Source of the DNA: Planctomycetota bacterium
GTDB lineage: Bacteria > Planctomycetota > Planctomycetia > Planctomycetales > Planctomycetaceae
Assembly (NCBI GenBank): GCA_027622115.1
Contig: JAQBZS010000001.1
Coordinates: 1-38,487, forward strand
Length of the DNA: 38,487 nucleotides
Direction: 5' to 3'
Positions 10,026 through 33,727 of this stretch are shown here, piece by piece (position 1 is the first letter of the stretch; each line of letters opens with the position of its first letter). The notes beneath the pieces were generated by a model, which saw only the letters and a list, made by a program, of their open reading frames with translations, was not told the origin of the DNA and did no database searches. Both the position numbers and the translations under genes were made by a program.

Positions 10026-10076
10026 CGTCCCTGGTACTACAACTCTGCGTTTTGTTGTTTTCCTGCACATTTTCCA

Positions 10077-10245: not shown

Positions 10246-10266
10246 CCACCGACGCAGGGTCGGTGG
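10246..10266. repeat. small palindromic hairpin CCACCGAC-N5-GTCGGTGG (second copy)
   Basis: It has the same architecture as 10077-10097. The one difference is a compensatory pair change (T-A to C-G). Confidence 0.6.
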
Positions 10267-10424
10267 TGCGAAAACTGGTCATCGTGTCCATGCCAGTTCT
10301 CACAGTAAATACGGTTTAGATTTAGAAAGGAGCAGCGATCCAATGAGCCAACCATAAGCACCAGCAATTCGCGTTCGATTCGAAGACCCTCACTCCTTCA
10401 AACCACGACACGAAAGTCAAAACC

Positions 10425-10943
10425 ATGAAAACGACAATTGCACTCATGACCGCTGTGGGCCTGACCGGCTTGATGCTTGGCTGCGGCGATGCCAAGTCGG
10501 GTTCCAAGTCGGATTCCAAGTCCGCTTCCGCAGCACCGGCCGCTCATCCCACCGAAGGCCCGCATCATGGGCATCTCATCGAACTTGGAAAGGAAGAGTA
10601 CCATGCTGAAGTCACGCATCCGGAAGACGAGAAAGCCATCACCATTTACGTCCTCGATGCTTCCGCCACGAAAGCCGTCCCGATCGATGCGGCGGATGTC
10701 GTGATCAACGTCTCGCACGATGGAACTCCGGAACAATTCAAGCTGACGGCATCTCCCGACACGGGTGATCCGGCAGGCAAGTCCTCGCGATTCGTCTCCA
10801 CGGACGCAGAGTTGGTGGAACACTTCGGCGAGGCATTCATTCACGGGACATTGGTACTGACGATCAACGGCAAATCGTTCCGCGGCGAAATCGACATCCA
10901 TCACGACGGCAAGCCGCATGACCACAAGACGAACAAGGACTAA
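10425..10943 (+). CDS. His-rich lipoprotein (putative periplasmic metal-binding protein)
   Basis: 172-aa ORF. It has a lipoprotein signal 'MKTTIALMTAVGLTGLMLGC' followed by a Ser/Lys-rich linker. His clusters are 'HPTEGPHHGHLIELGKEEYHAEVTHPEDE' and 'DIHHDGKPHDHK'. Confidence 0.7.
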   Translation: MKTTIALMTAVGLTGLMLGCGDAKSGSKSDSKSASAAPAAHPTEGPHHGHLIELGKEEYHAEVTHPEDEKAITIYVLDASATKAVPIDAADVVINVSHDGTPEQFKLTASPDTGDPAGKSSRFVSTDAELVEHFGEAFIHGTLVLTINGKSFRGEIDIHHDGKPHDHKTNKD

Positions 10944-20100: not shown

Positions 20101-20461
20101 TTGGGTGACGGACATCGCCTATTCATCAATGCGTAATCGGCTCGCGGTGTCGACGGGATCTGGACCAGTCACAGCGGACGAAACTCCGAGTGGCTCGCTG
20201 GAGATTCGGGATGCGAACTCGCTTTCATTGCTCAGCTCGGTTGAATTGTCCGCCCACATCGAGACCATCGCATTTAGCCCCGATAGCGAATCGATCGCTG
20301 CAGGTGCCGGTCCGGATGTGCTGATATTCGAGGCGAAGTCCGGCAAGCAAACGGCAAACTCCGCGGACATTCGGAACAAATCAACGGGTTGGTCTTCAGT
20401 CCGGACGGGACGCGGGTGTTTTCCGGGGCCACCGATCGCAGTGTTCGCGTCTGGCACGTAG
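17186..20461 (+). CDS. Ser/Thr protein kinase with TM helix and WD40 repeats (N-terminal 1091 aa; frameshifted, continues in 20389..20790)
   Basis: ATG at 17186 with GGAG 5 nt upstream. Kinase motifs: 'VGSGGMGVVY', 'VALKTI', 'HRDLKPHNIL', 'DFGLAR', 'GTPAYTPPEQ'. TM helix 'AAALMGALLISVVVGTSIAIWLAA'. 12 WD40 blades follow ('FSPDG...' pattern). The last ~35 aa of this ORF are out-of-frame junk. Confidence 0.9.
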   Translation: MTDGKSSLDHLDGPGPSVESATTQFNRDWQSGLSPQIESVLAVHTDLDQTILLQSLLPAEIRQRQLLEEDVDAEEYAARFPEHQGLVDEVFGSEPALPELPPPPIRIAALPAIKESHGQFIRAGDKFASYVIEDVVGSGGMGVVYRAFHAELGRTVALKTIRLDGAQSRNAVRRFRVEAQAAAKLDHPGIVPVFDVGEQDGIPFYSMAFVDGESLTESVRKQPLSTRRAAEICLAVSHAVEHAHSHGIIHRDLKPHNILIGADGQPRVADFGLARSLMDDESNLTVDGQVLGTPAYTPPEQADGRGRESGPVADVYSIGAILYQTLVGRPPFYAPSPVETLRQVIDSEPVPLRQLNPRIDRDLETICLMCLEKKPARRYSSAAQLGDDLQAYLDHRPILARPIGWLRRIAKSCRRRPAAAALMGALLISVVVGTSIAIWLAAEANTRANEAVANLYVAQINRAYRELENGDVIAARDLLTSQLPEATGGVDHRGFEWHFLWNQCHESLQEFTVSNSAIGAFAISPDGTRIVAADSRSDELRVWDVATGKLQNGVPVGASDTVDLEFSPDGARLVTCGAGGEVNVWDWTSRKKLLTLTEPTAGVRCVTFSADGSLLAAGGGVTRKRGELFVWQMETGRLKRQLSGFTSRVEDVTFSPDGRLLVSAAGPTEANDSGGEVKILNVESGAVVRSLGSADIESCAFSPDGTRLAGASAHPAQRLILVWDVQTGAVLQRLTGHSKRITSVTYSPSGDRLASGSEDGMVIIRHSNSGRELMRIRSPEYHVQMPIRFTPDGRRIATHNPAKISLWNAWADAEPFEHPVSNAIVGGWNEYLQFKAHWTKIECVAFAPDGNQFATGEGLGHVKVWDLASRRLLHEFAAGNSNVMGLAFSPDGQSVATAIGNLNANSTPFGEAAIWDVASGRRRKLLSKHSVPATSVVYSPDGSRVASASNDRTWRVCDADSGECLHVATMPRWVTDIAYSSMRNRLAVSTGSGPVTADETPSGSLEIRDANSLSLLSSVELSAHIETIAFSPDSESIAAGAGPDVLIFEAKSGKQTANSADIRNKSTGWSSVRTGRGCFPGPPIAVFASGT

Positions 20462-20888: not shown

Positions 20889-21617
20889 TCACTCAAGCAC
20901 CATCTCGCAATAAGACAGCAGACCGAGCGACTTCAGTTCGCGGCGCACATCCGCATCCTCGTCCGCTCCCAGCGTTTCGCGAACGACTTGCACCAGAATT
21001 CGCGCGTATTTCATGCGGGCTCGGGCGAGTGTCTTGCGAAAGGTCGCAGACGTCATTTCGCAGCCCAAGGCGTGTTCTACTTGGGAGACCAGTTCGGCCG
21101 CCGGAGTCTCTGGCGACTCGACTCGCGCCAAGAGAACGGCATAGTAACGCGCGTTGCCTTCTTCCAGGCGGTCCCAAGTCACCGTAAGCAAATGGTCGTG
21201 GATACACTCCTCAAACGATTTTGGAGCGCTGGGAGTCTCCGTTCCCGGATCAACCAGTTCTCCGTGCTCGGCGAACTGCTCAGGTGACCGTTGCTTCATG
21301 CGAAAGTGGTCGTTGACCAAATTGATGAGCACTCGCTTGAGATAATCACGAAATCGACCGTGGTCCGGGCTTGCCTTCCGGAAGTCGCCGCGCAACAGCC
21401 GCAGCGCGAACTCGTGCGACAAGTCTTCGGCCGTTTCTTCGTGTCTCACAGCACCGAGCAAATAGCGGAAGACTGGACCGATGTAATGACCAAGCACCGC
21501 GTTCCGAATCACGCCCGCTTCGATCGTGTTGTCGCCGTGCGCCTTCGCGATCATCGACCAGTGGGTTTCGATGCGCCCCAACCACGAACTTTTACTTTGC
21601 GTTGCGGTTTCGGTCAT
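20889..21617 (-). CDS. ECF-type sigma-70 family RNA polymerase sigma factor (planctomycete STK-associated type)
   Basis: ORF 20889..21767, with the start moved to the ATG at 21617. The region-2-like segment is 'AEDLSHEFALRLLRGDFRKASPDHGRFRDYLKRVLINLVNDHFR'. The region-4-like segment is 'EMTSATFRKTLARARMKYARIL'. No adjacent anti-sigma ORF is present. Confidence 0.75.
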   Translation of the reverse strand: MTETATQSKSSWLGRIETHWSMIAKAHGDNTIEAGVIRNAVLGHYIGPVFRYLLGAVRHEETAEDLSHEFALRLLRGDFRKASPDHGRFRDYLKRVLINLVNDHFRMKQRSPEQFAEHGELVDPGTETPSAPKSFEECIHDHLLTVTWDRLEEGNARYYAVLLARVESPETPAAELVSQVEHALGCEMTSATFRKTLARARMKYARILVQVVRETLGADEDADVRRELKSLGLLSYCEMVLE

Positions 21618-21970
21618 GCAAGTGCTTGTCTGGAAAGAAACTGTTCGCTCGCTCGCGCTGGTCCACCAGAACAAATCATTCGCCCCCATTGCAAGTGTAG
21701 ACGCTGTCGCACGCGGCTTGTTACACCGGCTGCTTTTTTTGTTCCTGGATTTGTTTCTTTCGAACACGCACGCATCTCATGTGTAAAGCCGGCTTAACGC
21801 TCGAAGAGGTGTTGAAGTCGCACAAACCGTGGGATTGGGACAATCGATTCGACCGGCGGCAACTTGCGAGCGCACGACTCTGCAAGAAGTGATTCAGGGT
21901 GTCACGGGTTCCGTACAAGAAGCGTGGGCGACTAACTCATGCTTCAAGTCGGTGACCTGTGGGGCCTGTC

Positions 21971-24340
21971 ATGCTGCTGAGATCTTGGATCGATTCCCTC
22001 TCATCGCGCTCGACTAAGAGACGAAAACTCAGAAGTTCCTTTGCCGCGGCGCTGCAGTCATTGGAATCGCGAATCCTGTTGAGCGCCGCCAATCCGCTCG
22101 ACCTGTCGACGCTCGACGGGGTTAACGGCTCTCGAATCCAGAACAGCGAATTTGGGCTCGGCAGCCCGATTAGCACCGCCGGCGACGTGAACGGTGATGG
22201 ATTCGGCGATGTCATTGTTGAGTCGTTTAATGGCGTGCATGTCGTCTTCGGTGATGCCAACGGTTTGGGCGCGTCGATCGACACGTCGAATCTCGCCGTG
22301 GCCGACGGCTTCACGATTCTGAACGCGAATGCCGACGACCTCGCGACAGCGGACATCAACGGCGACGGGTTAAGTGACATCGTGATCGGCCAACCGTTTG
22401 GGTCTAACGAAGGCCGAGCGGTGGTGGTCTTCGGCAAGTCCACGCCCTTCGCGGCCACGCTCGATGTCAACGCGATCACCGCGGCAGACGGGTTCTTCAT
22501 CAACGGCGAAACCGCAAACAGCCGCTTCGCACGCAGCGTGGCATCGGCAGGAGACGTCAACGCCGACGGCTTCGAAGATTTGATGCTCGGCTCGCAAGAC
22601 GCGACCGCCACGGTGACGATCGTGTTCGGTTCAGACGCCGGATTCGGGACGGCATTCGACATCGCCAACATCGACGGCACGAACGGATTCCACGTGCGGT
22701 CCGAACTGAACTCTCCTTTCTCGGCGATCAGTTCCGCCGGTGATTTCAACGGTGATGGCACGGACGACATAGTGTTCAGCCGCATCGGTGCCGGCTCGTT
22801 CGTCTTCGGCCGGACGACCGCATTTCCCGACGTCATTAATGTGGGTTCGTTTGGTTCATTGACCGGAGATCTTGACGGGACAACCGGCTTCCGTACGTCG
22901 CTGCCGACCAACATCGGCTTCAGTGTCGCCAGCGCGGGCGACGTCAACGGCGACGGCTTCGATGATGTGCTCTTCGGGACTAGCAACGCCAGCGCCGGCG
23001 TTAGTCTGTTGTTTGGGAGCAGTGCCGAGCGAAGCAACTTCGAGTTCTTTCCCGCCAACAACGCCGCAGCGGCGATTCAGCTAACCACACCGGCGAGTGA
23101 GCAACTTGGCTTCGCCGTCGCGGGAATCGGTGATGTGAATGGCGATAGTCTCAGCGACTTCGCGCTGGGTGCTCCCACCGGCGGCCGCGTTTACACGGTC
23201 TTCGGGTCGACGACTGCATTCCCAGTTGCGTTCGACCTGAGCACTCTGGATGGCGACAACAGCTTTCGAGCGGACAGTGCCGACGGCAGCGTTGGACGCG
23301 AGCTTGCCCCGGCCGTCGATGTGAACGGCGACGGCTTCGACGACTTTCTGCTGGGCACGTCGGGCAACGCCTACGTCGTGCATGGCGGCAATTTCACCGA
23401 TTCCGTCACGCACTTGGGCGATGGCGACTCAAACGTACTCACGGGGAATGCCAACGCGAATATCCTGAACGGGGCTCAGGCAGACGATTTGCTCATCGGC
23501 AACGGGGGGGCCGACGTGTTTAAGGGCGGTGCCGGTGACGACACGTTTAGCGTCCCCGATCTCAACTTTGCGCGAATCGAAGGCGACAACGGCACGGACA
23601 GGCTCAGTTTCACCGGCACGAGCCTCACGCTGGACCTCACCAACGGAGTCTTCGGCAGGTTGGACAGCGTTGAAGCCATCGCGCTGACGGGCGGTGGCGA
23701 TAACACGCTGATCATCACCGACCAGCAGGTGCTCGGCCTGTCACCCGAATCCAACAGTGTCACGGTTCTCGGCAACGCCGGCGACGTCGTGCATCGCGGA
23801 ACCGGTTGGACGCCGGGTGAAGTGGTTGACATTGGCGGCCAGCAATTCCGCGTCTATTCGCAGGGGTCCGCTGAGTTGCTGATCCAAGTGGGTGTGGCAA
23901 CGGATGAACTCGAGCCGCCGTCGGACATCGTGCTCAGCGCGAACTACATCAACGAGTCGCGTGCCGAGGGTTCGCAAATCGCAACGCTGTCCGCAGTTGA
24001 CGGAAACAATGGTGAGACGCACACCTTCGAGTCGCTCGATGATGCCGGCGGCGTGTTCTCCGTGAGCGGCGATCGGCTCGTGCTGGCGGACGCGAGCGGG
24101 TTGGACAAGGAGACGGGTCCGGCGAGTTACACGATCCGGCTGCGAGCTACGGACAACAACGGACTCCCGCGCGACAAGACCGTGACGATCGAAGTTGTGG
24201 ATTCGTTTCTCGACGACAGCTTTGACTTCGGCAACTTGCACGCGACGAACGGCTTCAGCTTTAAGGGTGAGGATGGAAGCGGCACCGGCACGACGATGTC
24301 CGAAGGCGACGTCAAAACGACGGCCAGCCCGATCTGGTGA
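21971..24340 (+). CDS. FG-GAP / RTX / cadherin-repeat surface protein, N-terminal part (frameshifted, continues in 24337..25689)
   Basis: ATG at 21971 (the track starts at the GTG at 21959). Repeated 'GDVNGDGFxD...G' FG-GAP units. The RTX nonapeptide block is 'LTGNANANILNGAQADDLLIGNGGADVFKGGAGDDTF'. A cadherin-like module reads 'ASYTIRLRATDNNGLPRDKTVTIEVVD'. The N-terminus has '...LESRILLSAANPLD'. Confidence 0.85.
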   Translation: MLLRSWIDSLSSRSTKRRKLRSSFAAALQSLESRILLSAANPLDLSTLDGVNGSRIQNSEFGLGSPISTAGDVNGDGFGDVIVESFNGVHVVFGDANGLGASIDTSNLAVADGFTILNANADDLATADINGDGLSDIVIGQPFGSNEGRAVVVFGKSTPFAATLDVNAITAADGFFINGETANSRFARSVASAGDVNADGFEDLMLGSQDATATVTIVFGSDAGFGTAFDIANIDGTNGFHVRSELNSPFSAISSAGDFNGDGTDDIVFSRIGAGSFVFGRTTAFPDVINVGSFGSLTGDLDGTTGFRTSLPTNIGFSVASAGDVNGDGFDDVLFGTSNASAGVSLLFGSSAERSNFEFFPANNAAAAIQLTTPASEQLGFAVAGIGDVNGDSLSDFALGAPTGGRVYTVFGSTTAFPVAFDLSTLDGDNSFRADSADGSVGRELAPAVDVNGDGFDDFLLGTSGNAYVVHGGNFTDSVTHLGDGDSNVLTGNANANILNGAQADDLLIGNGGADVFKGGAGDDTFSVPDLNFARIEGDNGTDRLSFTGTSLTLDLTNGVFGRLDSVEAIALTGGGDNTLIITDQQVLGLSPESNSVTVLGNAGDVVHRGTGWTPGEVVDIGGQQFRVYSQGSAELLIQVGVATDELEPPSDIVLSANYINESRAEGSQIATLSAVDGNNGETHTFESLDDAGGVFSVSGDRLVLADASGLDKETGPASYTIRLRATDNNGLPRDKTVTIEVVDSFLDDSFDFGNLHATNGFSFKGEDGSGTGTTMSEGDVKTTASPIW

Positions 24341-25689
24341 TCGGTGCCCCGTTTGCCGGCGCGAATGGCGAAGGCCAGGTGTATGTCGTGTTCGGGTCGA
24401 CTTCGGTGACATCGTCGAACCTCACGCCCGCCGATTTGAACGGCACGAACGGACTGCTCATTAACGCTGCGAACGCGGGTGACAACCTTGGCTATGTCGA
24501 TGTCGTGGGTGACATGAACGGCGACGGCATCCCGGAGCTGTTGCTCGGAGCGGGCAAAGCCACGACGACCGTGCCGCGCGGTGGTTCGACGTATCTGGTG
24601 TGGGGCGGTGCCAACCTCACGAACCTCGACGCAGCAGACGGCACCACGGACGGTGTGCTGTCACTCGCCAACTTCAACGCGACGTTCGGCTACCGCATCG
24701 ACGGCGTGGCGTCCGGATTCGAATTCTCGACCGAACCGGCGCTCAGCGTGCGCGGCTTGGGCGACATCAACGGCGACACGATCGCCGACATCGCCATCGG
24801 TTCGCCCAACCACGATCGCATCGGTCTCAACGACGTCGGTCAAGTGAATCTGATCTTCGGCGGCGCTGTGAATCTCGGTTTGATCGACGCAGCGGATGGA
24901 GCGGAAGACGGCGTCATCTCCGTCGACAGCATCGACGAGACGACCGGCCTGCGTCTCGAAGGCATCGCGGCCGGCGACTCGACCGGAGTCAGCGTGGCGA
25001 ACGGCGGCGACATCAACGGAGACGGCTCGGCGGACATCGTGATCTCCGCTCCGTTCGCGTCACCGGGCGGAATCAACGCTGCCGGCGAAGTATTCATCGT
25101 GTTCGGCGGCGCGGCGAACTTGAACGCACTCAACGACGCGGACGGGACGCGCGATGCACTCGCACCGCTTACGGCGCTCAACGGCACGACCGGCTACCGA
25201 ATCCAGGGCGACGGTGCAAACGGGCTGTTGGGATTCAATCTCAGCGGTACAGCGGACATCGATGAGGACGGAAACACCGATGTCGCCGTCTATTCGGCCG
25301 CCGGTAACGGCAAAGGGGCGGTTTATCTCGGCGGTGGCTTGGCCGGCCAGGATGAAGCGAATGGATCGATCGACGGCGTGATTTCCCTGGCAGCAATTCC
25401 ACAGCCGAGCCCGAGAGTGCATTCGCCCAGCGGACACAATCCGAACGAAGTCTTCGTCTTGGACGGCGAATCGGACAACAAAGTTCCTGACCCTACCGTT
25501 TTCTATGTGCTGAGAAATCCGGGTCGGCCTCTGGGGCAAAACTGCTCATCATTCCGTTTTCGTACCAAGGAAAATGGAGGACGAGCATGGAAGCTCAGCG
25601 GCAAACCCGGACGTGTGATCGTAATCGACCAGAACCCAATGAAGAAAACCCCACACCCAAGGGCGCACGCCAGATCGTCGTCCCCATGA
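24337..25689 (+). CDS. FG-GAP repeat protein, C-terminal part of the same gene; its last ~70 codons read into the IS
   Basis: The frame already reads 'DGQPDLVIGAPFAGANGEGQVYVVFG' from 24319. More FG-GAP units follow ('GDMNGDGIPELLLGA', 'GDINGDTIADIAIGSP', 'GDINGDGSADIVISAP'). From 25479 onward the ORF is inside the IS left inverted repeat. Confidence 0.8.
   Translation: MIGAPFAGANGEGQVYVVFGSTSVTSSNLTPADLNGTNGLLINAANAGDNLGYVDVVGDMNGDGIPELLLGAGKATTTVPRGGSTYLVWGGANLTNLDAADGTTDGVLSLANFNATFGYRIDGVASGFEFSTEPALSVRGLGDINGDTIADIAIGSPNHDRIGLNDVGQVNLIFGGAVNLGLIDAADGAEDGVISVDSIDETTGLRLEGIAAGDSTGVSVANGGDINGDGSADIVISAPFASPGGINAAGEVFIVFGGAANLNALNDADGTRDALAPLTALNGTTGYRIQGDGANGLLGFNLSGTADIDEDGNTDVAVYSAAGNGKGAVYLGGGLAGQDEANGSIDGVISLAAIPQPSPRVHSPSGHNPNEVFVLDGESDNKVPDPTVFYVLRNPGRPLGQNCSSFRFRTKENGGRAWKLSGKPGRVIVIDQNPMKKTPHPRAHARSSSP
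25479..25509. repeat. IS left terminal inverted repeat
   Basis: See the mobile_element entry; 30/31 match to the right end. Confidence 0.85.
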
Positions 25690-26861
25690 CACAAGACATC
25701 TACAACCGACTTTGGCGAGACCCCCAAAAACTCAGAGAACACCTCGACCCGATCATCAAGCAACTCCCCGAAATCTTCCCCAAAGGAACAAGCCAAGGAT
25801 ACCAGCTCCACGGACTGCTCCCCGAGTCAAAGAAGATGCCCGGCATCCAACTGCGGCAATTTCGAGTCGATGGCGTGGCCTACTCGCTGCGGCCAAGCTT
25901 TGTCTTTGCCTACATGACCGGCACTGTCGATGAACTCGAAGACGGATTGTTCTTGCTCTCGATGCGGAATCCCGCCTGGGTTGTCGCAAGGGTCTGCGGG
26001 AAAGATCCCATGTTTTGGCACCGCCACTTGGAACGCATGGGCCGCAATAGCCTGCTCGGCACGACCGTCCGGAGTGCCGACGCACTGCCACAGCATGGCG
26101 CTGCCGATGAACATCATCTCAAGTGGTGCGGCGAAAAGGGCTATTTGGCCATGATCGCCGCAGGCGGCTGCACCCTGGGAGCGGCGTTGACCGACTCGGT
26201 CGACGAAGAACACCTGACCGAGGCGTACGGCGTGTGCCGCGCTGAAGCCGCCGACGTCGACCCGAACTGGAAACTGCAAACCATGAACCTGGACGGCTTC
26301 GGAGCGACCCGCAACGCGATCAAGAAGCTCTTTTCGGGCGTGACCATGCTGCTGTGCTTTCTGCATGGCTTCTTGAAAATCCGAGATCGCAGCGGCAAGG
26401 ATCGCGAACTGCACCATCGTGTGTGGCGGGTCTACTGGTCCAAAACGAAACAGCAGTTTTCGCGTCGGCTGGGAGCGTTGAAACGCTGGGTGAAGACGCG
26501 AGACATGAAGCCGTCTGTATTGGAATACCTGAAGAAGCTGTACTCGAAGAAGGCGGAGTACCTGAAAAGCTATGACCATCCCGGCGCGTACCGGACGAGC
26601 AACCAGATTGACCGTCCCATGAACCGCGTACATCGCTTGCTGTACTCCAGCCGAGGTCTCCACGGTCACCAGGTTTCTTCCGAGCGTCGTCTTCGCGGAT
26701 TATGTTTGTTGGAAAACTACCGCCCGTTCGCTCGGCGGAGCGGCGAGACTCGACCGTACCAATGCCCCGCCGACCGACTCAACCAAGGAGCGTATGATGA
26801 CCACTGGCTCCACAACCTGCAGATTGCAGCTTCATTACAAGGGTTTCACCACAACACATAG
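25587..26861 (+). CDS. transposase (DDE-type; family not assigned, possibly ISKra4-like)
   Basis: 424-aa ORF with GGAGGA 5 nt upstream of the ATG at 25587. Candidate catalytic acidic residues lie in 'AADEHHLKW', 'MNLDGFGATRNAI' and 'TSNQIDRPMNRV'. 'RPSFVFAYMTG' resembles motifs I recall from ISKra4-type transposases, but that recall is low confidence. The stop codon lies inside the right IR. Confidence 0.75.
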   Translation: MEAQRQTRTCDRNRPEPNEENPTPKGARQIVVPMTQDIYNRLWRDPQKLREHLDPIIKQLPEIFPKGTSQGYQLHGLLPESKKMPGIQLRQFRVDGVAYSLRPSFVFAYMTGTVDELEDGLFLLSMRNPAWVVARVCGKDPMFWHRHLERMGRNSLLGTTVRSADALPQHGAADEHHLKWCGEKGYLAMIAAGGCTLGAALTDSVDEEHLTEAYGVCRAEAADVDPNWKLQTMNLDGFGATRNAIKKLFSGVTMLLCFLHGFLKIRDRSGKDRELHHRVWRVYWSKTKQQFSRRLGALKRWVKTRDMKPSVLEYLKKLYSKKAEYLKSYDHPGAYRTSNQIDRPMNRVHRLLYSSRGLHGHQVSSERRLRGLCLLENYRPFARRSGETRPYQCPADRLNQGAYDDHWLHNLQIAASLQGFHHNT

Positions 26862-26885
26862 AAAACGGTAGGGTCAGAAACTTTG
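26855..26885. repeat. IS right terminal inverted repeat
   Basis: See the mobile_element entry. Confidence 0.85.
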
Positions 26886-27055: not shown

Positions 27056-29029
27056 ATGAGAATCGATGATCAAGTCGATGACCTTCGGAAGCAATTCGAC
27101 GGGGCCTGGAGGTCCGGTTTTCAGCCGAATCTTGCCGATTATCTGGCTCGGAGCCCGAAACACCTTCGAGAGGGTCTGTTTCAGCAGCTCTTGGAGGTGG
27201 AGTTGGAGTACCGGGCCAAGGCTGGTCGTGCAGTCGATTCGGGGGAATATCAACGGCAGTATCCGGAGTACGCCGACGCCGTCTCGCGGGGCTTCGACAA
27301 TTATAGGCGGCATATGGCGCATCAGGCTTCCGTCGCCGTTGGTGGTGGCGAGACGCAGGTCTGGAATTCAAACGGGGTGTATGGTGCCGCTCCCAGCCCA
27401 GCGGTTCCATCGAGTGCTGGTGCTTCTCCAGGGCAACACCCGCCCGAGTCCACGTTTATCGAATTCCCCGAGTTCGAGCGCCGCACGGAGCCACAGCGCG
27501 GCGAGCTTTCTGGCCGGCATCCAGAGTTGATCAACCGCTTTCAGGTGATCAAGAAATTGGGGGCCGGCAACTTTGGAAGCGTCTATTTGGCACACGATTC
27601 CAAGCTGAATCGGCAAGTGGCGATCAAAGTTGCGGAACTGCCCGAAGACGCTTCGCCGCTGGAATGCGAACGGCGTCTGCAAATGTTGAAGGGCGAGGCC
27701 AAGAAAGTGGCCAGCTTGGATGACGGCGGGATCGTGCCCGTTTACGAAATTGACGAGTGGAACGGCCGGCCCTATGTGGTTTCGAAGTACATCGACGGTT
27801 GCAATTTGTCGGAGTATTTGGCGTTAAACTCACTGACACATCACCAGATTGTGGAAATCGTTGAACGGGTGGCTCGGGCGGTCAATCACGCGCATGCCAA
27901 GGCTGTCGTCCACCAGGATCTCAAGCCGGCCAACATTTTGATTGATCGGCAGGGCCAGCCACACATCACGGATTTCGGGCTGGCGATTCATCAAACGGAA
28001 CGCCGTGCCATGAAGGGCAGGCGAGCCGGCAGCCCGCAATATATGTCGCCTGAACAGGTCCGCGCTGAAACGCACAAGATCGACGGTCGGACCGATGTCT
28101 GGAGCCTGGGAGTCATGCTGTATGGAATGCTGGCGGGCCGGCTGCCGTTTGATGAAAAGTCGACATCCGAAGTCTTCGCGGCAATCATGGACCACCAAAT
28201 CGTTCCGCCTCGCCAATTCAACGACGCGATTGACGAAAACTTGCAAGACATCGTCATGAAATGTTTGCAAGAAGACATCAACGACCGGTATTCCACGGCA
28301 AATGACTTGGCGGACGCCCTGCAAAAGTGGCGCACCGCAGGAACCGGGTCCAACGCGTGGAAATGGGTCATTCCATCCGTGGCCGTTGTGATGCTGACCG
28401 TGTTGGGCTGGTGGCTGAACAGTGATCCTCCACCCCAACCACCACCGGCACCACCCACGTCAGACCCCAACGTGACGCTGGATGTGACACGCGCGTTTTT
28501 TTCACCAACAAACGGTGAACGCGTATCGCAAACGTTCTCGGAAGCGACGGACGAGTTTTCGATCGAACTTGGCAACGACGTGCAGATCAAAGCCAAACTC
28601 GATCGACCGGCTTATGTTTATGTTCTCTGGATCGAAGCCGATGGCAGTGTCACGCCGATGTATCCCTGGCAAAACTTCAAATGGGATCAGCGTCCCGCGG
28701 ACAAGCTGGTGACCGAAATCACGTTGCCGGATGATCGAAGCGGATGGGAAGTTGGCGGCCCGCCGGGCATCGAAACGATCGTCCTGTTCGCTCGGGATGA
28801 GCCACTGCCGCGCGATTTCCATGCGGAACAGGAGCTTGGCAAGTTTCCGTCCATTCCGCTTCCGGAGACACTCAAGCGTCGCGGTCCGCGAAATCCGGAT
28901 CAACCCCGGCCTTTGCGCGTGATCGATGATGCAACTCGGCAGCGCGTGTTCGAAGACTCGTTGCGATCTGAGTTCCCCTACATCAAGTCGATCAGCTTTC
29001 CAAATCTGGGCACAACGCAACTCGAGTGA
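27056..29029 (+). CDS. transmembrane Ser/Thr protein kinase (non-RD, 'HQD') with a C-terminal extracytoplasmic DUF4384-like domain
   Basis: ORF 27008..29029, with the start moved to the ATG at 27056 ('MRIDDQVDDLRKQFDGAW...'). Kinase motifs: 'LGAGNFGSVY', 'VAIKV', 'HQDLKPANIL', 'DFGLAI', 'GSPQYMSPEQ'. TM helix 'WKWVIPSVAVVMLTVLGWWL', then a Pro-rich linker. The DUF4384-like segment is 'DRPAYVYVLWIEADGSVTPMYPWQ...GIETIVLFARDEPLP'. Confidence 0.88.
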   Translation: MRIDDQVDDLRKQFDGAWRSGFQPNLADYLARSPKHLREGLFQQLLEVELEYRAKAGRAVDSGEYQRQYPEYADAVSRGFDNYRRHMAHQASVAVGGGETQVWNSNGVYGAAPSPAVPSSAGASPGQHPPESTFIEFPEFERRTEPQRGELSGRHPELINRFQVIKKLGAGNFGSVYLAHDSKLNRQVAIKVAELPEDASPLECERRLQMLKGEAKKVASLDDGGIVPVYEIDEWNGRPYVVSKYIDGCNLSEYLALNSLTHHQIVEIVERVARAVNHAHAKAVVHQDLKPANILIDRQGQPHITDFGLAIHQTERRAMKGRRAGSPQYMSPEQVRAETHKIDGRTDVWSLGVMLYGMLAGRLPFDEKSTSEVFAAIMDHQIVPPRQFNDAIDENLQDIVMKCLQEDINDRYSTANDLADALQKWRTAGTGSNAWKWVIPSVAVVMLTVLGWWLNSDPPPQPPPAPPTSDPNVTLDVTRAFFSPTNGERVSQTFSEATDEFSIELGNDVQIKAKLDRPAYVYVLWIEADGSVTPMYPWQNFKWDQRPADKLVTEITLPDDRSGWEVGGPPGIETIVLFARDEPLPRDFHAEQELGKFPSIPLPETLKRRGPRNPDQPRPLRVIDDATRQRVFEDSLRSEFPYIKSISFPNLGTTQLE

Positions 29030-29065
29030 TCGGCGGTTCGCGTTGCCTGAACAACAGGAGAAACC

Positions 29066-32000
29066 ATGAACACGATACGAGTTCGCTTGTGTTGCGCGAT
29101 GGTGTGGCTTGTCCTCGGATGCGGTGATTCGACAAGCGAGAAGTCCGAGTCGATTCAGGCCAAAAACGAACATGGGAAGTCTGAACCCACAATTCCCGTC
29201 GCTTCCCGAAATCAAAGTCCAAGTGGCCCGGAATCAAGCCGACCTGCAGAACCGGCAATTCAGCAGCACCCCGCTCGACACGGTCAGTCACAGCCCAGCC
29301 CAGCGGTTGCCGATAATCCGCCGTTCGCTGCAAGGTCTGGGTCGGGCAGCGATGAAACGCGTCGCCGCGGGTCGAGAAACGATCAGGACGACGTTGCCGG
29401 AGCCGTTGAACGCGTGGAAGACATTGGCGTCGAGCGTCGAGCGATTTCCGATTCCTGGGTGCTCGACCATTTCTCAACGTTCAAACGGCAGGATTTGCCC
29501 GAGTTCATGCTCCCGGTGAAAGTCGCGTTGGCAGTCGTGGGTGAACTGCATCAACCCGGACAGATTGAAGTTCCCGTGGATACCGACCGAGACGGTCAAA
29601 CTGATGTGTGGGTGTACTACATCGGTGACCAGCCGGCCCTTGCCGAAACCGATCGATTCGACACCGGATGTCGGGATTTCCGCTACGACATCCGGACCGG
29701 CCAAGGCACGAGGAGTCTGTACTGGTTCACCGAATCGGCGATCGAACTGCCGATTGATGTTCCACCCGTATTGATCCCCGATGTCTACGACCTGTGTTGG
29801 AAATCGCCAGCCGGCAAGCTCGCCCGCACGCGGATCGCGGAACTGGCAAACCAAGTCTTGACGGATTTGCCAAGCAAGCTGGCACTGCTCGCGAAAGAGT
29901 CTCGACCCGAGGATATTGATGCGCGCGTCACGCAAAGTGCGGAGCACGCCACCGCGTTGATTCCGAAGCTCATGCGATTTCATCAGGAACAAGGGTTCGA
30001 GAAATCGCTTCGGCATCCGTGGGGCTTCGAGGTGAAGTACGTCGGATTCGATCTCGATCAAGATGCCGCAGGCAAGCAAGAAGTACTCGCCGGATTCTCG
30101 CCGTTGGGTGTTCACGAAATTCAATTCTACAAGACCGACTGGCACGTGGCCGACGATCTATTGGCGGATGTCACCCTGGATCGAGGCGAAATCCAGATGG
30201 TGGCCATCGAGGACCGGCATTACTTTCCGATCGACGAGTATTGGGTTCGAGCCGCGGCGGGAACCCGCGAGTCACTCGCGAAGCGATTCCTGGCACCGGC
30301 CGTGGAGGCCTGGCAATCCCACGACTGGTACCGTGCGGTGGCACTCATGAGACGCGCCACGCAATGTGCGGCCTTGTTGGGTGATCTGCAACTTGACTCG
30401 AAATCATTTCCGAAGGAATTCACCAGCCCGCCGCGCGGAGGCATCAAACACCAGCGGGCCAAACAGAACTGGATATTCGATGTCGCCGGCTTTCCCGCCG
30501 AGCAAGTCCTCGACGCAGCAACGCACCTGGCATGGGAACCCGACAAAAGTGCGACGAGTTCGATTCGCGAAATAGCAGGTTACAAGGCGACTCGGCGCGA
30601 GTACTCCGAGGCACTGGCCTGGTATCGCCTCTGCCTAAAATCGGCCAAGAAGACCAGCCAAGCCGTCATTCAAGTCAACGTCTTGGAGTCGATGAGCGAA
30701 ATCCATCGTCATCTCGGCAGCTACGACCAGGCACTGCAATGCTTGTTGGACGCCGGCGACCTGGAAGCATCTTTGTCGTACCAACGCGATCTCGTGAAAA
30801 ACCTGGGCGTGATGGGTGGCGATAGCGGCGACCCCGAAGCCATTGAACGCAACATGCACATGCGAACGCATTCGATGACGGTCAACCGAAGTGCGCGGCT
30901 CGCGATGATCGCGTCCATTCGAAACAGCCTGGGAGAACGCAACCGCGCGGAAGCTTTGCTGGCGGATGCCGAACGACTTGCTCATTCGGTCAAACACGGA
31001 TACCTCGAAGCGGACTTGTTGAACTTACGAGCGAAGTGGGATATCGCCGATCGCCAGTGGGACATTGCCGAGCAGCGGCTTAACCGCGCCATGCGACTCG
31101 TGGCCGATCAAATTGATAAGCAAGCGGCACACGATCGCGGCAAGCAACTGCTCGATTCCGGGCGAGCCATGCATCATTTTCAAGTGGTCGATCACCGCAT
31201 TGTGCTGGATGTGGGCATGTCGTCGAGGACCAGCCCGAATTCCTACCGTGCTTTGAGCGCTTCATTGATGGCACAACTTGCTCTAGCACGCAGCCAGGTT
31301 ACAGAAATCGAACCGGCCGAGGCCCGTCAATGGTTGACCACCGCCGTTAAATGGCAACGACAATCGCTGGATTGGAGCGAAGCAGCCCACGACCAATCGG
31401 GTGCGCTCGCCGGCCGACTGCATCTTGCGAACATCCTGGCCCGTCAAGGACAACTCGCGGCCGCCCGCGCCTTGAACGTCAAAGTGGTGCTACAGGCCGA
31501 ATCCGAAAGAGCCTTCGAACTCGTGTGGCAGTCACACGCCCTCAGTGGCCAAATCAGCGCCCAAGAAAACGACGTCCCCGCAGCGATCGCCGCCTACGAA
31601 CGCGCGGCGAAAGTTGTGGAACACGTTCGAGCGGGCATTCACAGCGAGTCGGTCCGTCGTGGAATCTTTGGTGCCAAATTGCAGGTCTATCAACAACTGG
31701 CATTGCTCTATTGGCGAGCACGCGAGACCGAGCCCGCTGACGCGCGGGGAGCGTTGGATCTGAAGATCTGGCAGTGCATGGAACGCTCCAAAGCGCGGAC
31801 GCTGCTCGACATGGTTGGCGGCCGACCGATGCGAGTCAAAGGAGACACGGTCGTGGCCGTGGCCAACAGCGATCCACGATTGCTCGATCCGTTGATCGGC
31901 CGGAAACGCAGTTTGCCACAACAGACTCCCGTTCTGGATGCACGTGCGAAACTCGACAGGCGCGAGTTGGCGTCGCTGACCAGTGTCGAGCCGGTCGATC

Positions 32001-33166
32001 TGAAAACCGTGCAACAGGAACTCGGCCCGAATGTCGTGCTGATCGAATACTTCATCGCGGAAGACGACCTCTTGGTGGCCGTCATTTCGATGGACACGCT
32101 CAAAGTGGTTTCCATCGCGGGCTGGGGCGGGCCACAACTCCACAGCGAAGTCGAAAAATTCCGCCGAAAGCTGGAAGACTTGGACGAGCTATACGCGGCC
32201 GATGCAAGCGCGTTATTCAGTCGCCTGCTGGAACCGTGCCTGTCAGGCCAGACTGGTGATTCAATCAAGCAGTTGTGCATCGTTCCCGCTGGTGCGCTGC
32301 ATTACGTCCCCTTTGATGCATTCCTGATGCCCGCGGGCGAATTCGTCACTGAACGATTTATTGTGTCATACGCTGCGAGTGCCAGCGCGTTGGTCTACGC
32401 CATGCACCGGCGCGGTCAAGCACCACCATCGCAACTCGAGTCCCAGGACCGAACGCTCGTCGTTGCCGAACCCATGCCACGGATCGACTATGGATCACTC
32501 CCGGGTGCCGTGCTTGAGGGCGAGCGAATTCGTGATGTCGCCAGTGAACCCAAAGACTTTCTTCAAGGCCGCGCGGCCACCGAACGCAATGTCGTCGCGT
32601 CCCTGACCCAGGCCAAATACTTTCACTTCGCGGGTCATACGGATTTGCCGCCGAGCGGCCCGATGCAAGCCGCGCTGTTGTGTACGGAAGACGTGGACTT
32701 CGATGGCCGGCTGGAAGTCCAGGAGATCTTCGAACTGGATTTGCGAGCCTGCGAATTGGCGGTCTTAAGCGCCTGCGAAACGCGGCTGGGGCGCTCAAGT
32801 CGCGGTGATGAAATCGTGGGGCTGGAACGAGCCTTTCTCCGAGCGGGAATCCCGACTGTCGTCGCCAGCTTGTGGAAGGTCGAGGACGCATCGACGTCAT
32901 TACTGATGGAGACGTTCTACGCCAACTTGTGGCAGAAAAAGCTGCCGCGAGCCGAAGCCCTTCGTCAGGCTCGTTTGTCGCTAATACGCGACCCCAAACA
33001 GATTGCGGACAGAGCGCGATCACTCACCGTCGAATTGGCCCGTCGTGGTCGCGGTCCCAAGTCCCCCACCCCACGTCCGTTTGTTGCCGGGATCACAACC
33101 AAGCCGAATGCCAAGGCGCACCCCGGACTTTGGGCCGGCTTCGTCATTTCTGGAGACTGGCGATAG
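29066..33166 (+). CDS. lipoprotein with TPR-like repeats and a C-terminal CHAT (caspase-like, clan CD) peptidase domain
   Basis: 1366-aa ORF with AGGAGA 4 nt upstream of the ATG. The lipobox is 'MVWLVLGC'. The CHAT core has an intact dyad ('KYFHFAGHTD' His, 'LAVLSACETRLG' Cys) and 'IVGLERAFLRAGIPTVVASLWKVED'. The long helical middle has TPR-like character. Confidence 0.88.
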   Translation: MNTIRVRLCCAMVWLVLGCGDSTSEKSESIQAKNEHGKSEPTIPVASRNQSPSGPESSRPAEPAIQQHPARHGQSQPSPAVADNPPFAARSGSGSDETRRRGSRNDQDDVAGAVERVEDIGVERRAISDSWVLDHFSTFKRQDLPEFMLPVKVALAVVGELHQPGQIEVPVDTDRDGQTDVWVYYIGDQPALAETDRFDTGCRDFRYDIRTGQGTRSLYWFTESAIELPIDVPPVLIPDVYDLCWKSPAGKLARTRIAELANQVLTDLPSKLALLAKESRPEDIDARVTQSAEHATALIPKLMRFHQEQGFEKSLRHPWGFEVKYVGFDLDQDAAGKQEVLAGFSPLGVHEIQFYKTDWHVADDLLADVTLDRGEIQMVAIEDRHYFPIDEYWVRAAAGTRESLAKRFLAPAVEAWQSHDWYRAVALMRRATQCAALLGDLQLDSKSFPKEFTSPPRGGIKHQRAKQNWIFDVAGFPAEQVLDAATHLAWEPDKSATSSIREIAGYKATRREYSEALAWYRLCLKSAKKTSQAVIQVNVLESMSEIHRHLGSYDQALQCLLDAGDLEASLSYQRDLVKNLGVMGGDSGDPEAIERNMHMRTHSMTVNRSARLAMIASIRNSLGERNRAEALLADAERLAHSVKHGYLEADLLNLRAKWDIADRQWDIAEQRLNRAMRLVADQIDKQAAHDRGKQLLDSGRAMHHFQVVDHRIVLDVGMSSRTSPNSYRALSASLMAQLALARSQVTEIEPAEARQWLTTAVKWQRQSLDWSEAAHDQSGALAGRLHLANILARQGQLAAARALNVKVVLQAESERAFELVWQSHALSGQISAQENDVPAAIAAYERAAKVVEHVRAGIHSESVRRGIFGAKLQVYQQLALLYWRARETEPADARGALDLKIWQCMERSKARTLLDMVGGRPMRVKGDTVVAVANSDPRLLDPLIGRKRSLPQQTPVLDARAKLDRRELASLTSVEPVDLKTVQQELGPNVVLIEYFIAEDDLLVAVISMDTLKVVSIAGWGGPQLHSEVEKFRRKLEDLDELYAADASALFSRLLEPCLSGQTGDSIKQLCIVPAGALHYVPFDAFLMPAGEFVTERFIVSYAASASALVYAMHRRGQAPPSQLESQDRTLVVAEPMPRIDYGSLPGAVLEGERIRDVASEPKDFLQGRAATERNVVASLTQAKYFHFAGHTDLPPSGPMQAALLCTEDVDFDGRLEVQEIFELDLRACELAVLSACETRLGRSSRGDEIVGLERAFLRAGIPTVVASLWKVEDASTSLLMETFYANLWQKKLPRAEALRQARLSLIRDPKQIADRARSLTVELARRGRGPKSPTPRPFVAGITTKPNAKAHPGLWAGFVISGDWR

Positions 33167-33211
33167 TTGGAACGATCAGGGTCAGCCGTCATCAGTGGTG
33201 TGAGCCGAAGC

Positions 33212-33727
33212 TTATTCCGCATTCTGAAAGTGATGCCGCACGGCGCGACCGCTGATGGTCTCTTTGCGGAGAAGTTCCTGAGCGACGGCTTCGATCGCTT
33301 TGGCATGTTGCTCACCGCCCAGCACGTGTTCGGTCTTGTTCAACATGCGGCGCGCGAGTTTTTGAATGTGTCGTTCATTGGTCGCTCGCATGGACAACAA
33401 CTGTTCGACGCTGCGCAAATCGTGGGCGGCACCTTCCGTGCAATACCGACCGGTAAACCGACTCTCAGCGACCATGCCCGCCAGCAGGATCAGCACTTCG
33501 TCTTCGAGTTGATCCTGCGATGCCTTCGAGCGTCCCTTTTGAATCTTGCAGGCTCCCAGGCGGCTGTCCCCGGATTGCAGTTGCGAGGGTGAGATCGTGA
33601 CTTTCTCGATCGGCCGCCCCAACGACACGGCCATCCCCGCGTGCCCAGCCTCATGCCAAGCCGTTGCGGTCAGGTGGAACGTGGCAGCTGGCGACGGTTC
33701 TTTGGATGGCGGGGGGTCATGCTTCAT
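33212..33727 (-). CDS. stand-alone FtsH-type (M41) zinc metallopeptidase domain protein, with no AAA+ module and no TM segment
   Basis: ORF 33212..34111, with the start moved to the ATG at 33727 because the upstream 128 codons look non-protein-like. 'TATAWHEAGHAGMAVSLGRPIEKVTISP' matches the FtsH 'TAYHEAGHA...V.KVTIIPRG' pattern. 'LLAGMVAESRFTG' and 'GAAHDLRSVEQLL' match the FtsH 'GGRAAEE..FG' and 'GA.NDL..AT' blocks. Confidence 0.7.
   Translation of the reverse strand: MKHDPPPSKEPSPAATFHLTATAWHEAGHAGMAVSLGRPIEKVTISPSQLQSGDSRLGACKIQKGRSKASQDQLEDEVLILLAGMVAESRFTGRYCTEGAAHDLRSVEQLLSMRATNERHIQKLARRMLNKTEHVLGGEQHAKAIEAVAQELLRKETISGRAVRHHFQNAE

Follow-up and report, generated by a model that had tools for sequence, protein, structure and literature searches.

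A planctomycete transmembrane kinase gene and the adjacent gene for a predicted exported caspase-like (CHAT) protease form a pair that recurs in related bacteria

The stretch of Planctomycetota bacterium DNA analyzed here, referred to as the window, comprises 38,487 nt (assembly GCA_027622115.1, contig JAQBZS010000001.1). Open reading frames were located at 27008/27056-29029 (+), 29066-33166 (+) and 33212-33727 (-). The first encodes a transmembrane Hanks-type kinase with a DUF4384 domain, the second a 1366-aa protein ending in a CHAT domain, and the third, convergent with them, an M41-like peptidase, while an insertion sequence (IS) is located immediately upstream of the kinase gene. The features of the two co-oriented genes are as follows.

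27056-29029 (+): gene for a 657-aa transmembrane Hanks-type Ser/Thr kinase; a longer ORF of 673 aa starts at 27008
27056-27340 (+): N-terminal cytoplasmic helical domain shared with planctomycete kinases, including those encoded next to ECF sigma factors
27539-28303 (+): protein kinase catalytic domain, non-RD type (HQD instead of HRD)
28358-28417 (+): single transmembrane (TM) helix, WKWVIPSVAVVMLTVLGWWL
28427-28456 (+): Pro-rich juxtamembrane linker (PPPQPPPAPP), predicted on the outer face
28568-28792 (+): DUF4384 ectodomain, predicted beta-sandwich
28874-28888 (+): KRRGP motif in a predicted flexible loop; Arg609-Gly610 (28880-28885) is a candidate protease recognition or cleavage site
28922-29005 (+): conserved C-terminal helix and strand, modelled as packing back on the beta-sandwich
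29030-29065 (+): 36-nt spacer with AGGAGA at 29056-29061
29066-33166 (+): gene for a 1366-aa N-domain/TPR-like/CHAT protein, predicted to be exported
29066-29122 (+): predicted signal peptide ending in a putative lipobox, V-L-G-C (Cys19)
29123-29443 (+): S/A/P/R/E-rich tether, predicted to be disordered
29444-30505 (+): family-specific N-domain of ~350 aa with a DxDxDG loop (VDTDRDGQTD) at 29576-29605
30506-32200 (+): helical TPR-like region
32201-33157 (+): CHAT (clan CD, caspase-like) peptidase domain; His1191 (32636-32638) and Cys1237 (32774-32776)

The kinase domain was identified with Pfam profiles at residues 178-432 of the 673-aa ORF (PF00069, E 3.5e-50, 171.3 bits against a cutoff of 31.7), and the VAIK, HQDLKPAN and DFG motifs were all located. 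The VAIK Lys, helix-C Glu, catalytic Asp, Asn and DFG are invariant in an alignment of the kinase with its homologues. The Arg preceding the catalytic Asp is absent, the motif being HQD, whereas the orthologue described below has HRD and two relatives have HCD. The N-terminal helical domain matches no Pfam family, yet it forms a conserved block in the same alignment, and a profile built from it gave hits to kinases at loci L001, L002, L004-L007, L010, L012, L014, L026 and L055 (locus designations are our own). A hydrophobic segment sits at the position of the TM helix in all homologues, and the Pro-rich region that follows is variable and of low complexity in them. DUF4384 was matched at residues 521-595 of the 673-aa ORF (PF14326, 37.4 bits against a cutoff of 27). 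An AlphaFold2 model of the ectodomain (mean pLDDT 79) is all-beta in this part, with only weak matches to Ig-like folds. The KRRGP loop is modelled at pLDDT 50-55. Within this otherwise variable stretch the Arg is present in 15 and the Gly in 13 of 16 ectodomain homologues, although a role in cleavage is inference only and the conserved Arg could be structural. The C-terminal elements (model residues H159-172 and E178-186, pLDDT 74-86) carry a conserved L..L...F...R...FP pattern.

The kinase stop codon and the ATG of the CHAT gene are 36 nt apart, AGGAGA lies 4 nt before the ATG, and no terminator-like hairpin was found between the genes. The CHAT protein begins MNTIRVRLCCAMVWLVLGC|GDS. Its n-region contains R5 and R7 and is followed by a hydrophobic core and V-L-G-C19, in which Leu at -2 is atypical; the orthologue has LLFAAGC|GD at the analogous site, and other family members have plain signal peptides or anchors. 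Residues 20-125 are rich in S, A, P, R and E and are not conserved in the family alignment, and the last ~15 residues of this tether together with the first ~16 residues of the N-domain (model residues 1-31) were modelled at pLDDT 33-36. The CHAT domain was matched at residues 1046-1364 (PF12770, E 1.2e-62, 212.4 bits against a cutoff of 24). His1191 (FHFAGH) and Cys1237 (LSACET) are invariant in 16 family members and are retained in partner CHAT proteins of other clades, so that the catalytic dyad is intact by sequence.

The first-pass annotation, made from the sequence alone, had described a kinase with one TM helix and a DUF4384-like domain followed by a lipoprotein with a TPR-like region and CHAT domain, and this observation is confirmed, with some corrections. 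The TPR assignment rests only on sub-threshold Pfam hits for TPR_8, TPR_12 and TPR_2 (E 2.6e-4 to 1e-2), the best of which are 21.4 bits (TPR_8, cutoff 25.7) and 20.3 bits (TPR_12, cutoff 30.1), and on TPR_12 hits in the orthologue (E 9.4e-15, 55 bits), which pass the cutoff. The ~350 residues that had been left without a family are a real family-specific domain rather than filler. Only 20 cluster representatives were found among 1.84 billion proteins, nearly all ~1300 aa long with the same layout. The domain was modelled with pLDDT 84.9 and pTM 0.81, and a fold search gave no match in the PDB (best E 0.12, TM below 0.2). In its DxDxDG loop D172, D174 and G177 are near-invariant and D176 is invariant, yet calcium binding is inferred from the motif alone.

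The upstream element is a real IS of 1407 bp bounded by 34-nt terminal inverted repeats at 25479-25512 and 26852-26885, which are 94% complementary. Its transposase matches IS256 only weakly (23 bits against a cutoff of 150), and no clear target duplication was seen. The downstream M41 ORF keeps HEAGH and the GAAHD third ligand, but only positions 10-98 of the 191-position M41 profile are matched and there is no AAA+ domain; it is an ATPase-less M41-like protein, not an FtsH. Neither the M41 peptidase nor the IS was found at any related locus, and both are therefore regarded as bystanders.

Conservation of the pair, which had been set beforehand as a test, was examined through related loci. 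The only full-length homologue of the CHAT protein among 5.8 billion proteins (P0001 at locus L001; 46% identity, 99% coverage) follows, after a 12-nt gap, a kinase that is 40% identical over 654 residues to that of the window (database gene call P0017, 657 aa), including the ectodomain, while the flanks of L001 are unrelated to the window. Other kinase-DUF4384 genes have a TPR-CHAT gene within two genes at loci L003, L004, L006 and L171, with no gap (0 nt) at L006, whereas two kinase-DUF4384 loci, L005 and L173, have no CHAT gene nearby. In total, 6 of 8 informative kinase-DUF4384 loci carry a signal-peptide TPR-CHAT gene within two genes, against 1 of 80 generic kinase loci (p about 1e-7), and the conservative count is 4 of 6 against 0 of 22 Planctomycetota controls (p 7e-4), from a sample of loci that is small, was chosen by how long their contigs were, and is phylogenetically clustered. 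Ectodomain and partner CHAT-domain similarities fall into the same three clades (Spearman rho 0.79).

Two variants tie the proteins together further. At L168/L169 the closest N-domain CHAT relative is preceded by a 270-aa TM plus DUF4384 protein with no kinase (12-nt gap at L168), which matches the whole ectodomain profile at E 7e-49 and has only about 20 cytoplasmic residues. At L087 a single 1674-aa protein (P0151) consists of kinase and TM followed by N-domain, TPR and a CHAT-like domain that has lost His and Cys. However, one N-domain CHAT protein (L170) is preceded by a multi-TM protein whose DUF4384 likeness is not supported.

The first-pass annotation had placed both the DUF4384 domain and the CHAT protease on the periplasmic side, proposed that the kinase reads out or is controlled by the protease, and suggested an accessory or conflict-type locus; this interpretation is partly supported. 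The topology inference holds. The kinase has no signal peptide and one TM helix, so the DUF4384 domain lies outside, and the CHAT protein, its orthologue, every partner CHAT examined and all family members with a complete N-terminus start with a signal peptide, lipobox or N-terminal anchor. Export was judged by eye and by hydropathy only, and exported CHAT proteins are common in any case, an N-terminal hydrophobic segment being present in 41 of 67 generic CHAT ORFs. Conservation of the pair is likewise supported, and the association of DUF4384 with clan-CD peptidases that had been put forward is borne out by the literature. Whether the kinase reads out or is controlled by the protease remains inference, the M41 peptidase is not part of the module, and the conflict-locus reading is weak.

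The closest analogue is the type III-E CRISPR-Cas Craspase, comprising Cas7-11, the TPR-CHAT protease Csx29, its substrate Csx30, Csx31 and the ECF sigma factor RpoE (Kato et al., bioRxiv 10.1101/2022.08.17.504292). There Csx29 cleaves Csx30, which binds and controls RpoE, within a flexible linker next to a C-terminal domain that is DUF4384 in one Csx30 group. However, that system is cytoplasmic and RNA-guided. The window contains no CRISPR array, and none of the window ORFs scanned matches a Cas family, Cas7-11 included; the trigger cannot be target RNA. The CHAT protein scores 17.8 bits against a cutoff of 300 for the Csx29 model (NF041237), over the catalytic core only, the protease is predicted to be exported, and the partner carries a kinase rather than a sigma-binding domain. 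In ECF sigma factor/Ser-Thr kinase pairs (ECF43 EcfP-PknT, EcfK-PknS; planctomycetal groups ECF59-62 and ECF217), sigma factors are activated by adjacent transmembrane Hanks kinases, which are presumed to phosphorylate them. The window kinase shares its N-terminal domain and ectodomain with kinases whose genes overlap PF07638 sigma genes at the kinase start (L002, L006 and L171), yet a sigma-factor profile gave no hit in the window or next to the L001 kinase. We found no description of DUF4384 ectodomains or of a co-encoded exported CHAT protease in these papers or in the planctomycete kinase survey.

HetF of Anabaena is a CHAT protease acting as a specific regulatory protease that cuts PatU3 once, after Arg117 (PMC9457339), although partner, biology (cell division and heterocysts) and architecture all differ, with no kinase, DUF4384 or N-domain. 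DUF4384 is fused to 23 cyanobacterial orthocaspases (PMC8283722, PMC7475262), in cis rather than in trans as here; those are single polypeptides of unknown function and topology with a Peptidase_C14 rather than a CHAT domain, and no kinase is involved. In the regulated proteolysis of membrane anti-sigma factors (RseA/DegS/RseP), a periplasmic protease acting on the outer part of a single-pass membrane regulator passes envelope information to an ECF sigma factor. Those proteases are serine and metallo enzymes rather than Cys/His clan CD and the regulator is an anti-sigma factor, not a kinase, while cleavage in the present system is hypothetical.

The best explanation, held with moderate confidence, is that the two genes encode a conserved two-protein sensing unit on the outer face of the cytoplasmic membrane, an extracytoplasmic receptor-protease pair with kinase output. 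The kinase would be a type-I membrane protein, and the CHAT protein would be exported and probably lipid-anchored, with a likely calcium-binding loop in its N-domain and a TPR-like solenoid. In this view the DUF4384 ectodomain is the interface with the protease, acting as a docking site, a substrate, or both, and the state of the complex is set by whatever the N-domain and TPR region bind. That state would change kinase activity, relayed by phosphorylation; in many relatives the target is probably the ECF sigma factor encoded immediately upstream, and one specific version is cleavage after Arg609. The analysis itself establishes the domain content, conservation of the gene pair, the fusion and kinase-less variants, predicted export and conserved catalytic residues, whereas physical interaction, the direction of signaling, proteolytic activity and cleavage, the ligand and the kinase substrate are all inferred. 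DUF4384 also shares its fusion partners (kinase or caspase heads) with FGE-sulfatase, GUN4 and WD40, and may therefore be a general sensor domain rather than a protease-specific partner.

Within this framework a protease-gated receptor kinase, in which cleavage after Arg609 or in the Pro-rich linker sheds the tail or the ectodomain and switches the kinase on or off, resembling site-1 cleavage of anti-sigma factors or Craspase cleavage of Csx30, is a specific sub-model held with low confidence. The invariant dyad, the near-invariant Arg-Gly, the preference of HetF and the separase family for Arg at P1, and the Csx30 linker cleavage are consistent with it. However, Craspase is not known to cut after Arg, the fusion keeps the module on a kinase despite having lost His and Cys, and the kinase-less pair has no obvious cytoplasmic output; both variants fit docking or sensing better than cleavage. 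A non-proteolytic co-receptor, in which the TPR-CHAT protein is mainly a ligand-binding subunit docked on DUF4384, its protease activity is directed at other envelope substrates or used only for self-processing, and the kinase merely reports occupancy, is possible but doubtful. The dead CHAT domain of the fusion, the large conserved N-domain and TPR surface, and a kinase-less protein that could serve as a plain membrane tether favor it, yet His and Cys are strictly kept in every stand-alone partner across three clades, which argues that proteolysis matters to the paired system.

An anti-phage or conflict module of kinase, protease and M41 peptidase brought in by mobile DNA seems very unlikely. 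The adjacent IS, matches of the kinase domain to defense kinases in PADLOC, the occurrence of CHAT proteases in type III-E CRISPR systems and the location of L170 among ParA, ParB and DnaB genes could be read in its favor. However, the protease is predicted to be exported, away from cytoplasmic phage targets, the IS is a single local insertion that, like the M41 ORF, is absent from all related loci, and the window has no CRISPR array or match to a Cas family among the ORFs scanned. Relatives are often headed by ECF sigma genes and sit in varied chromosomal contexts, and GC content (0.57-0.60) is like that of the rest of the window. The PADLOC hits cover only the generic kinase domain, with none to the CHAT domain, the M41 ORF or the transposase ORF, and the one weak hit on the CHAT protein (18 bits, residues 593-687) lies outside the CHAT domain. 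Chance adjacency is equally hard to sustain. Although planctomycete genomes hold many kinases and TPR or CHAT proteins, and L005 and L173 lack a CHAT gene, the enrichment over control loci, the different flanks of the orthologous pair, the fusion and kinase-less variants and the shared clades all disfavor it.

A more far-reaching reading, which is unlikely but not excluded, is that bacteria have a protease-activated receptor kinase, in which an exported, calcium-dependent CHAT protease recognizes the DUF4384 ectodomain of a Hanks kinase and cuts it at the conserved Arg-Gly loop, so that a periplasmic proteolytic event becomes cytoplasmic phosphorylation and, in relatives, ECF sigma activation. 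More generally, DUF4384 would then be a dedicated recognition domain for clan-CD proteases, linking this module, the orthocaspase-DUF4384 fusions and the DUF4384-type Csx30 substrates of Craspase.

Almost nothing is known about what the many planctomycete Hanks kinases sense, or what bacterial CHAT and caspase-like proteases do outside type III-E CRISPR and heterocyst control. The conserved pairing of a predicted exported caspase-like protease with a kinase ectodomain gives both a concrete partner, and suggests an uncharacterized way of passing signals across the cell membrane, as well as a function for DUF4384 and for a new ~350-aa domain without a PDB fold match. It extends the logic of TPR-CHAT protease, DUF4384 partner and ECF sigma factor seen in Craspase to envelope signaling, and, if cleavage is confirmed, it would be a bacterial counterpart of protease-activated receptors.

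The region contains what the first-pass annotation had described from sequence, namely a transmembrane kinase with a DUF4384 domain followed by a CHAT protein with a putative lipobox and a TPR-like region, a convergent M41 peptidase and an upstream IS element, and that observation is confirmed. The features within and around the pair are as follows.

25479-26885: insertion sequence of 1407 bp, bounded by 34-nt terminal inverted repeats (25479-25512 and 26852-26885, 94% complementary)
25587-26861: transposase ORF of that element, 424 aa
27056-29029 (+): kinase gene, 657 aa in the database gene call (the longer ORF, 673 aa, starts at 27008)
27911-27934: HQDLKPAN motif of the kinase
28880-28885: Arg609-Gly610 of the kinase, within KRRGP
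29056-29061: AGGAGA, 4 nt before the ATG of the second gene
29066-33166 (+): gene for the CHAT protein
29576-29605: VDTDRDGQTD (DxDxDG) loop of the N-domain
33212-33727 (-): M41-like ORF, 171 aa

The kinase ORF ends 36 nt before the CHAT ORF, and a scan found no terminator-like hairpin between the two genes. Neither a terminator nor a convincing promoter was found around the pair, and searches returned no Rfam family and no tandem array. Pfam places Pkinase at residues 178-432 (E 3.5e-50) and DUF4384 at residues 521-595 (37.4 bits, cutoff 27) of the 673-aa ORF, and CHAT at residues 1046-1364 of the second protein (E 1.2e-62). The kinase has one hydrophobic helix, residues 435-454 of the 657-aa form, which is followed by PPPQPPPAPP. 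It keeps the catalytic Lys, Glu, Asp, Asn and DFG, but reads HQD instead of HRD and is thus a non-RD kinase. The orthologue described below has HRD, while two relatives (P0029 and P0035) have HCD. The second protein starts MNTIRVRLCCAMVWLVLGC|GDS, after which follow about 105 residues rich in S, A, P, R and E. TPR profiles hit its middle region only below threshold, although the orthologue passes.

The convergent M41-like ORF matches only the first half of the M41 profile. It keeps HEAGH and the GAAHD third zinc ligand and has no AAA+ domain, and its stop codon lies 45 nt from that of the CHAT gene. The upstream element is a real insertion sequence whose transposase matches IS256 transposases only weakly. 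Its left end overlaps the 3' end of the FG-GAP ORF 24337-25689 and its right end lies 170 nt upstream of the kinase start, such that it may have truncated the FG-GAP gene or replaced the native promoter of the kinase. A target-site duplication was looked for and no clear one was seen.

A search of 5.8 billion proteins found a single full-length relative of the CHAT protein (P0001; 46% identity, 99% coverage), while all other hits covered only the CHAT domain. On its contig (L001) P0001 follows a 646-aa kinase after a 12-nt gap, and that kinase is 40% identical to the window kinase from the N-terminal domain to the last residues of the ectodomain. The flanks of L001 differ from those of the window, with DsbD and a secreted 415-aa protein upstream and SASA downstream. 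The 424-aa ORF upstream of the window kinase is not conserved in L001; it is the IS transposase and not a third gene of the module.

The kinase search showed that Pkinase plus DUF4384 is a recurrent planctomycete architecture, and the contigs of eight such proteins were examined. In locus L006 an ECF sigma gene is followed by the kinase and then by a 1183-aa TPR-CHAT gene directly after the kinase stop codon. Locus L003 has a convergent, adjacent 1190-aa TPR-CHAT gene, and locus L004 has a 1354-aa TPR-CHAT gene one gene away. In locus L171 an ECF sigma gene precedes the kinase and a 1314-aa TPR-CHAT gene lies one gene away. Locus L172 has an adjacent signal-peptide TPR protein that is cut by the contig end. 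Loci L005 and L173 have no CHAT nearby, while locus L002 ends at the kinase stop and is uninformative. L173 came from a profile search with the ectodomain, which returned few proteins, mostly short stand-alone or fragmentary DUF4384 proteins. At positions 9175-10627 of this 6.6-Mb contig, in which many genes look fragmented, a kinase (264 aa) and a DUF4384 protein (208 aa) are called as separate adjacent genes, probably representing a frameshifted or split kinase-DUF4384 gene, and no CHAT lies within 10 kb.

The ectodomain alignment was too divergent to seed a genome scan, and a scan with the full kinase alignment returned only generic kinases and no close relative of the window. Likewise, a metagenome scan with the CHAT family alignment returned only generic CHAT proteins matching the C-terminal part. 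Both sets, 80 generic kinase loci and 80 generic CHAT loci, were therefore used as controls and searched with HMMs built from the sequences described here. One of the 80 kinase loci had a CHAT ORF, and two of the 80 CHAT loci had a kinase. The comparison of 6 of 8 informative kinase-DUF4384 loci against 1 of 80 kinase controls gives a Fisher p of about 1e-7. With the window and L001 excluded and only Planctomycetota controls retained, the comparison is 4 of 6 against 0 of 22 (p 7e-4). The sample is small and was not drawn at random, so these figures are indicative rather than definitive. One further locus was not counted. On a soil metagenome contig (L145, 335-5525) a 567-aa kinase with a TM helix and a ~165-aa ectodomain is followed by a signal-peptide TPR-CHAT protein. 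This ectodomain looks DUF4384-like by eye and aligns in register with the DUF4384 ectodomain profile, but only weakly (pairwise E 0.008, probability 5%) and with no Pfam hit; it may be a divergent instance of the pair outside the sampled clades.

The ~350 residues that the first-pass annotation could not assign to a family (about 127-480) define a rare family, termed here the N-domain. An exhaustive HMMER search of 1.84 billion cluster representatives found 20 proteins, nearly all of about 1300 aa with the domain in the same place. The best-scoring hit in that search, P0137, is preceded on two contigs, after 12 nt, by a 270-aa protein (L168, 6830-7642; L169, 6733-7545) made of about 20 cytoplasmic residues, a TM helix and the DUF4384 ectodomain with its tail. 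The ectodomain of this protein matches the whole kinase-ectodomain profile at E 7e-49, and there is no kinase. A second variant, P0151 (L087, 1609-6633), is a single 1674-aa protein comprising a kinase, a TM helix, a coiled coil, the N-domain, a helical region and a CHAT-like domain in which the catalytic His and Cys are replaced, that is, a pseudo-protease used as a kinase ectodomain. Its gene sits next to a DUF1501 gene. The DUF4384 membrane protein and the protease thus stay together without the kinase, and the kinase can also carry the protease module directly, on the far side of its TM helix, in place of DUF4384. Both facts argue for a physical link, and the fusion independently supports an extracytoplasmic location for the module. 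A further member of the N-domain family, on L170 (1-14188), has a lipobox (MCCGC) and sits among DnaB, ParB and two ParA/MipZ-like genes, suggesting a plasmid or another mobile replicon. Its upstream partner is a 422-aa multi-TM protein of unknown family, for which DUF4384 likeness is not supported (hhalign probability 0.1; no Pfam hit). Ectodomain similarity and partner CHAT-domain similarity sort the seven pairs into the same three clades (rho 0.79), which fits co-inheritance or co-evolution but is confounded by species phylogeny.

The kinase has no signal peptide and one TM helix with basic residues before it, so DUF4384 lies outside. Judged by eye and by hydropathy only, every partner CHAT begins with a signal peptide, a lipobox or an N-terminal anchor, which holds for the window, L001, L003, L004, L006 and L171, and for every N-domain family member with a complete N-terminus. 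The window and L001 proteins both read ...GC|GD. However, by the same crude measure 41 of 67 generic CHAT ORFs have an N-terminal hydrophobic segment, and an exported CHAT protein is therefore not unusual in itself.

With an 11-sequence alignment the ectodomain model reaches a mean pLDDT of 79. It is predicted to be a beta-sandwich with only weak Ig-like fold matches, followed by a loop at pLDDT 50-55 and by a helix and a strand that pack back on the sandwich. In that loop, within an otherwise variable stretch, Arg is present in 15 of 16 homologues and is followed by Gly in 13 (Arg609-Gly610 of KRRGP). The N-domain model has pLDDT 84.9 and pTM 0.81 and has no PDB fold match. The N-domain carries the DxDxDG loop VDTDRDGQTD, which is conserved across the family (one Asp invariant, the other two and the Gly near-invariant) and which, by motif alone, resembles the calcium-binding loops of extracellular proteins. 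PDB sequence searches with the N-domain, the ectodomain and the TPR-CHAT part gave nothing significant, and neither did the fold searches. The putative catalytic residues His1191 and Cys1237 are invariant in 16 family members, and the equivalent residues are kept in the partner CHATs of the other clades.

The best-supported reading, which we consider somewhat more likely than not, is an extracytoplasmic receptor-protease pair with a kinase output. In this view the DUF4384 ectodomain would be the interface with the tethered protease, the N-domain and TPR region presumably bind the cue, and the kinase would relay the state of the complex. What supports the topology and the pairing is comparative evidence, whereas the mechanism, including any binding, cleavage or phosphorylation, is inferred and not shown. 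In L002, L006 and L171 a PF07638 ECF sigma gene overlaps the kinase start, and those kinases share the N-terminal domain of the window kinase. Direct phosphorylation of ECF sigma factors by adjacent kinases is established for ECF43 and proposed for the planctomycete groups ECF59-62 and ECF217. The sigma factors of L006 (7415-8008) and L171 (3928-4518) read RRQMDS(I/V)DICQS where E. coli RpoE has its acidic region 2.2 stretch; a Ser between acidic residues is reminiscent of phosphorylation-dependent ECF43 sigma factors, but this is only a lead. Neither the window nor its orthologue has such a sigma gene next to the kinase.

Within this reading, the protease may cut the ectodomain at the Arg-Gly loop or in the Pro-rich linker, or it may dock without cleavage. 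The strictly conserved dyad favours cleavage, as do two precedents, in that HetF cuts PatU3 after Arg117 and Csx29 cuts the linker of Csx30. The dead-protease fusion and the kinase-less partner, which has no obvious cytoplasmic output, favour docking. Cleavage specifically at Arg-Gly remains possible but doubtful. The accessory domains fused to these kinases (FGE-sulfatase, WD40, DUF4384) also mirror those fused to orthocaspases, and DUF4384 may therefore be a general sensor domain rather than a protease-specific one.

The first-pass annotation had further judged that the pair, flanked by the IS and the M41 peptidase, fits an accessory or conflict-type locus. The M41 ORF and the IS transposase have no counterpart in any of the ~170 loci retrieved. 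PADLOC hits on the kinase cover only its generic kinase domain, and nothing hits the CHAT domain, the M41 ORF or the transposase. GC content is flat across the region, and the rest of the window is ordinary planctomycete chromosome, with DUF1501, PSCyt and PSD proteins, FG-GAP proteins, an RND pump, a WD40 kinase and an FHA-GAF cyclase. The conflict-locus reading is therefore weak, although the L170 family member does sit among ParA, ParB and DnaB genes. Elsewhere in the window a second Hanks kinase (17186-20461, +), of 1091 aa with WD40 propellers, converges on a 292-aa protein with a Sigma70_r2 domain (20889-21767, -), which may be another kinase / sigma-like pair. FHA domains bind phosphothreonine, such that the FHA-GAF-adenylate/guanylate cyclase protein (2539-4137, -) is a possible downstream reader of Ser/Thr kinase signalling, a suggestion that rests on its domains alone.

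The closest described system is type III-E Craspase, in which the TPR-CHAT protease Csx29 cleaves Csx30, which holds the ECF sigma RpoE. One group of Csx30 C-terminal domains is DUF4384, a domain the authors of that work note is often fused to proteases. The window is not a member of that system. The Csx29 model scores 17.8 bits against a cutoff of 300, no Cas7-11 or CRISPR array was found, and the protease is predicted to be exported. DUF4384 is also fused to 23 cyanobacterial orthocaspases, and it is listed in a kinase atlas as a C-terminal domain of one bacterial kinase family, with no partner mentioned. Few papers in the literature searched mention DUF4384. None of those read describes an exported CHAT protease paired with a DUF4384 kinase, and neither does a survey of planctomycete kinases.

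The interpretation offered in the first-pass annotation is thus partly supported, in that its topology and pairing parts stand on comparative evidence while its three-gene and conflict parts do not. With its mechanism inferred rather than shown, the pair is a conserved and uncharacterised variant of protease-linked and ECF/kinase-linked envelope signalling.
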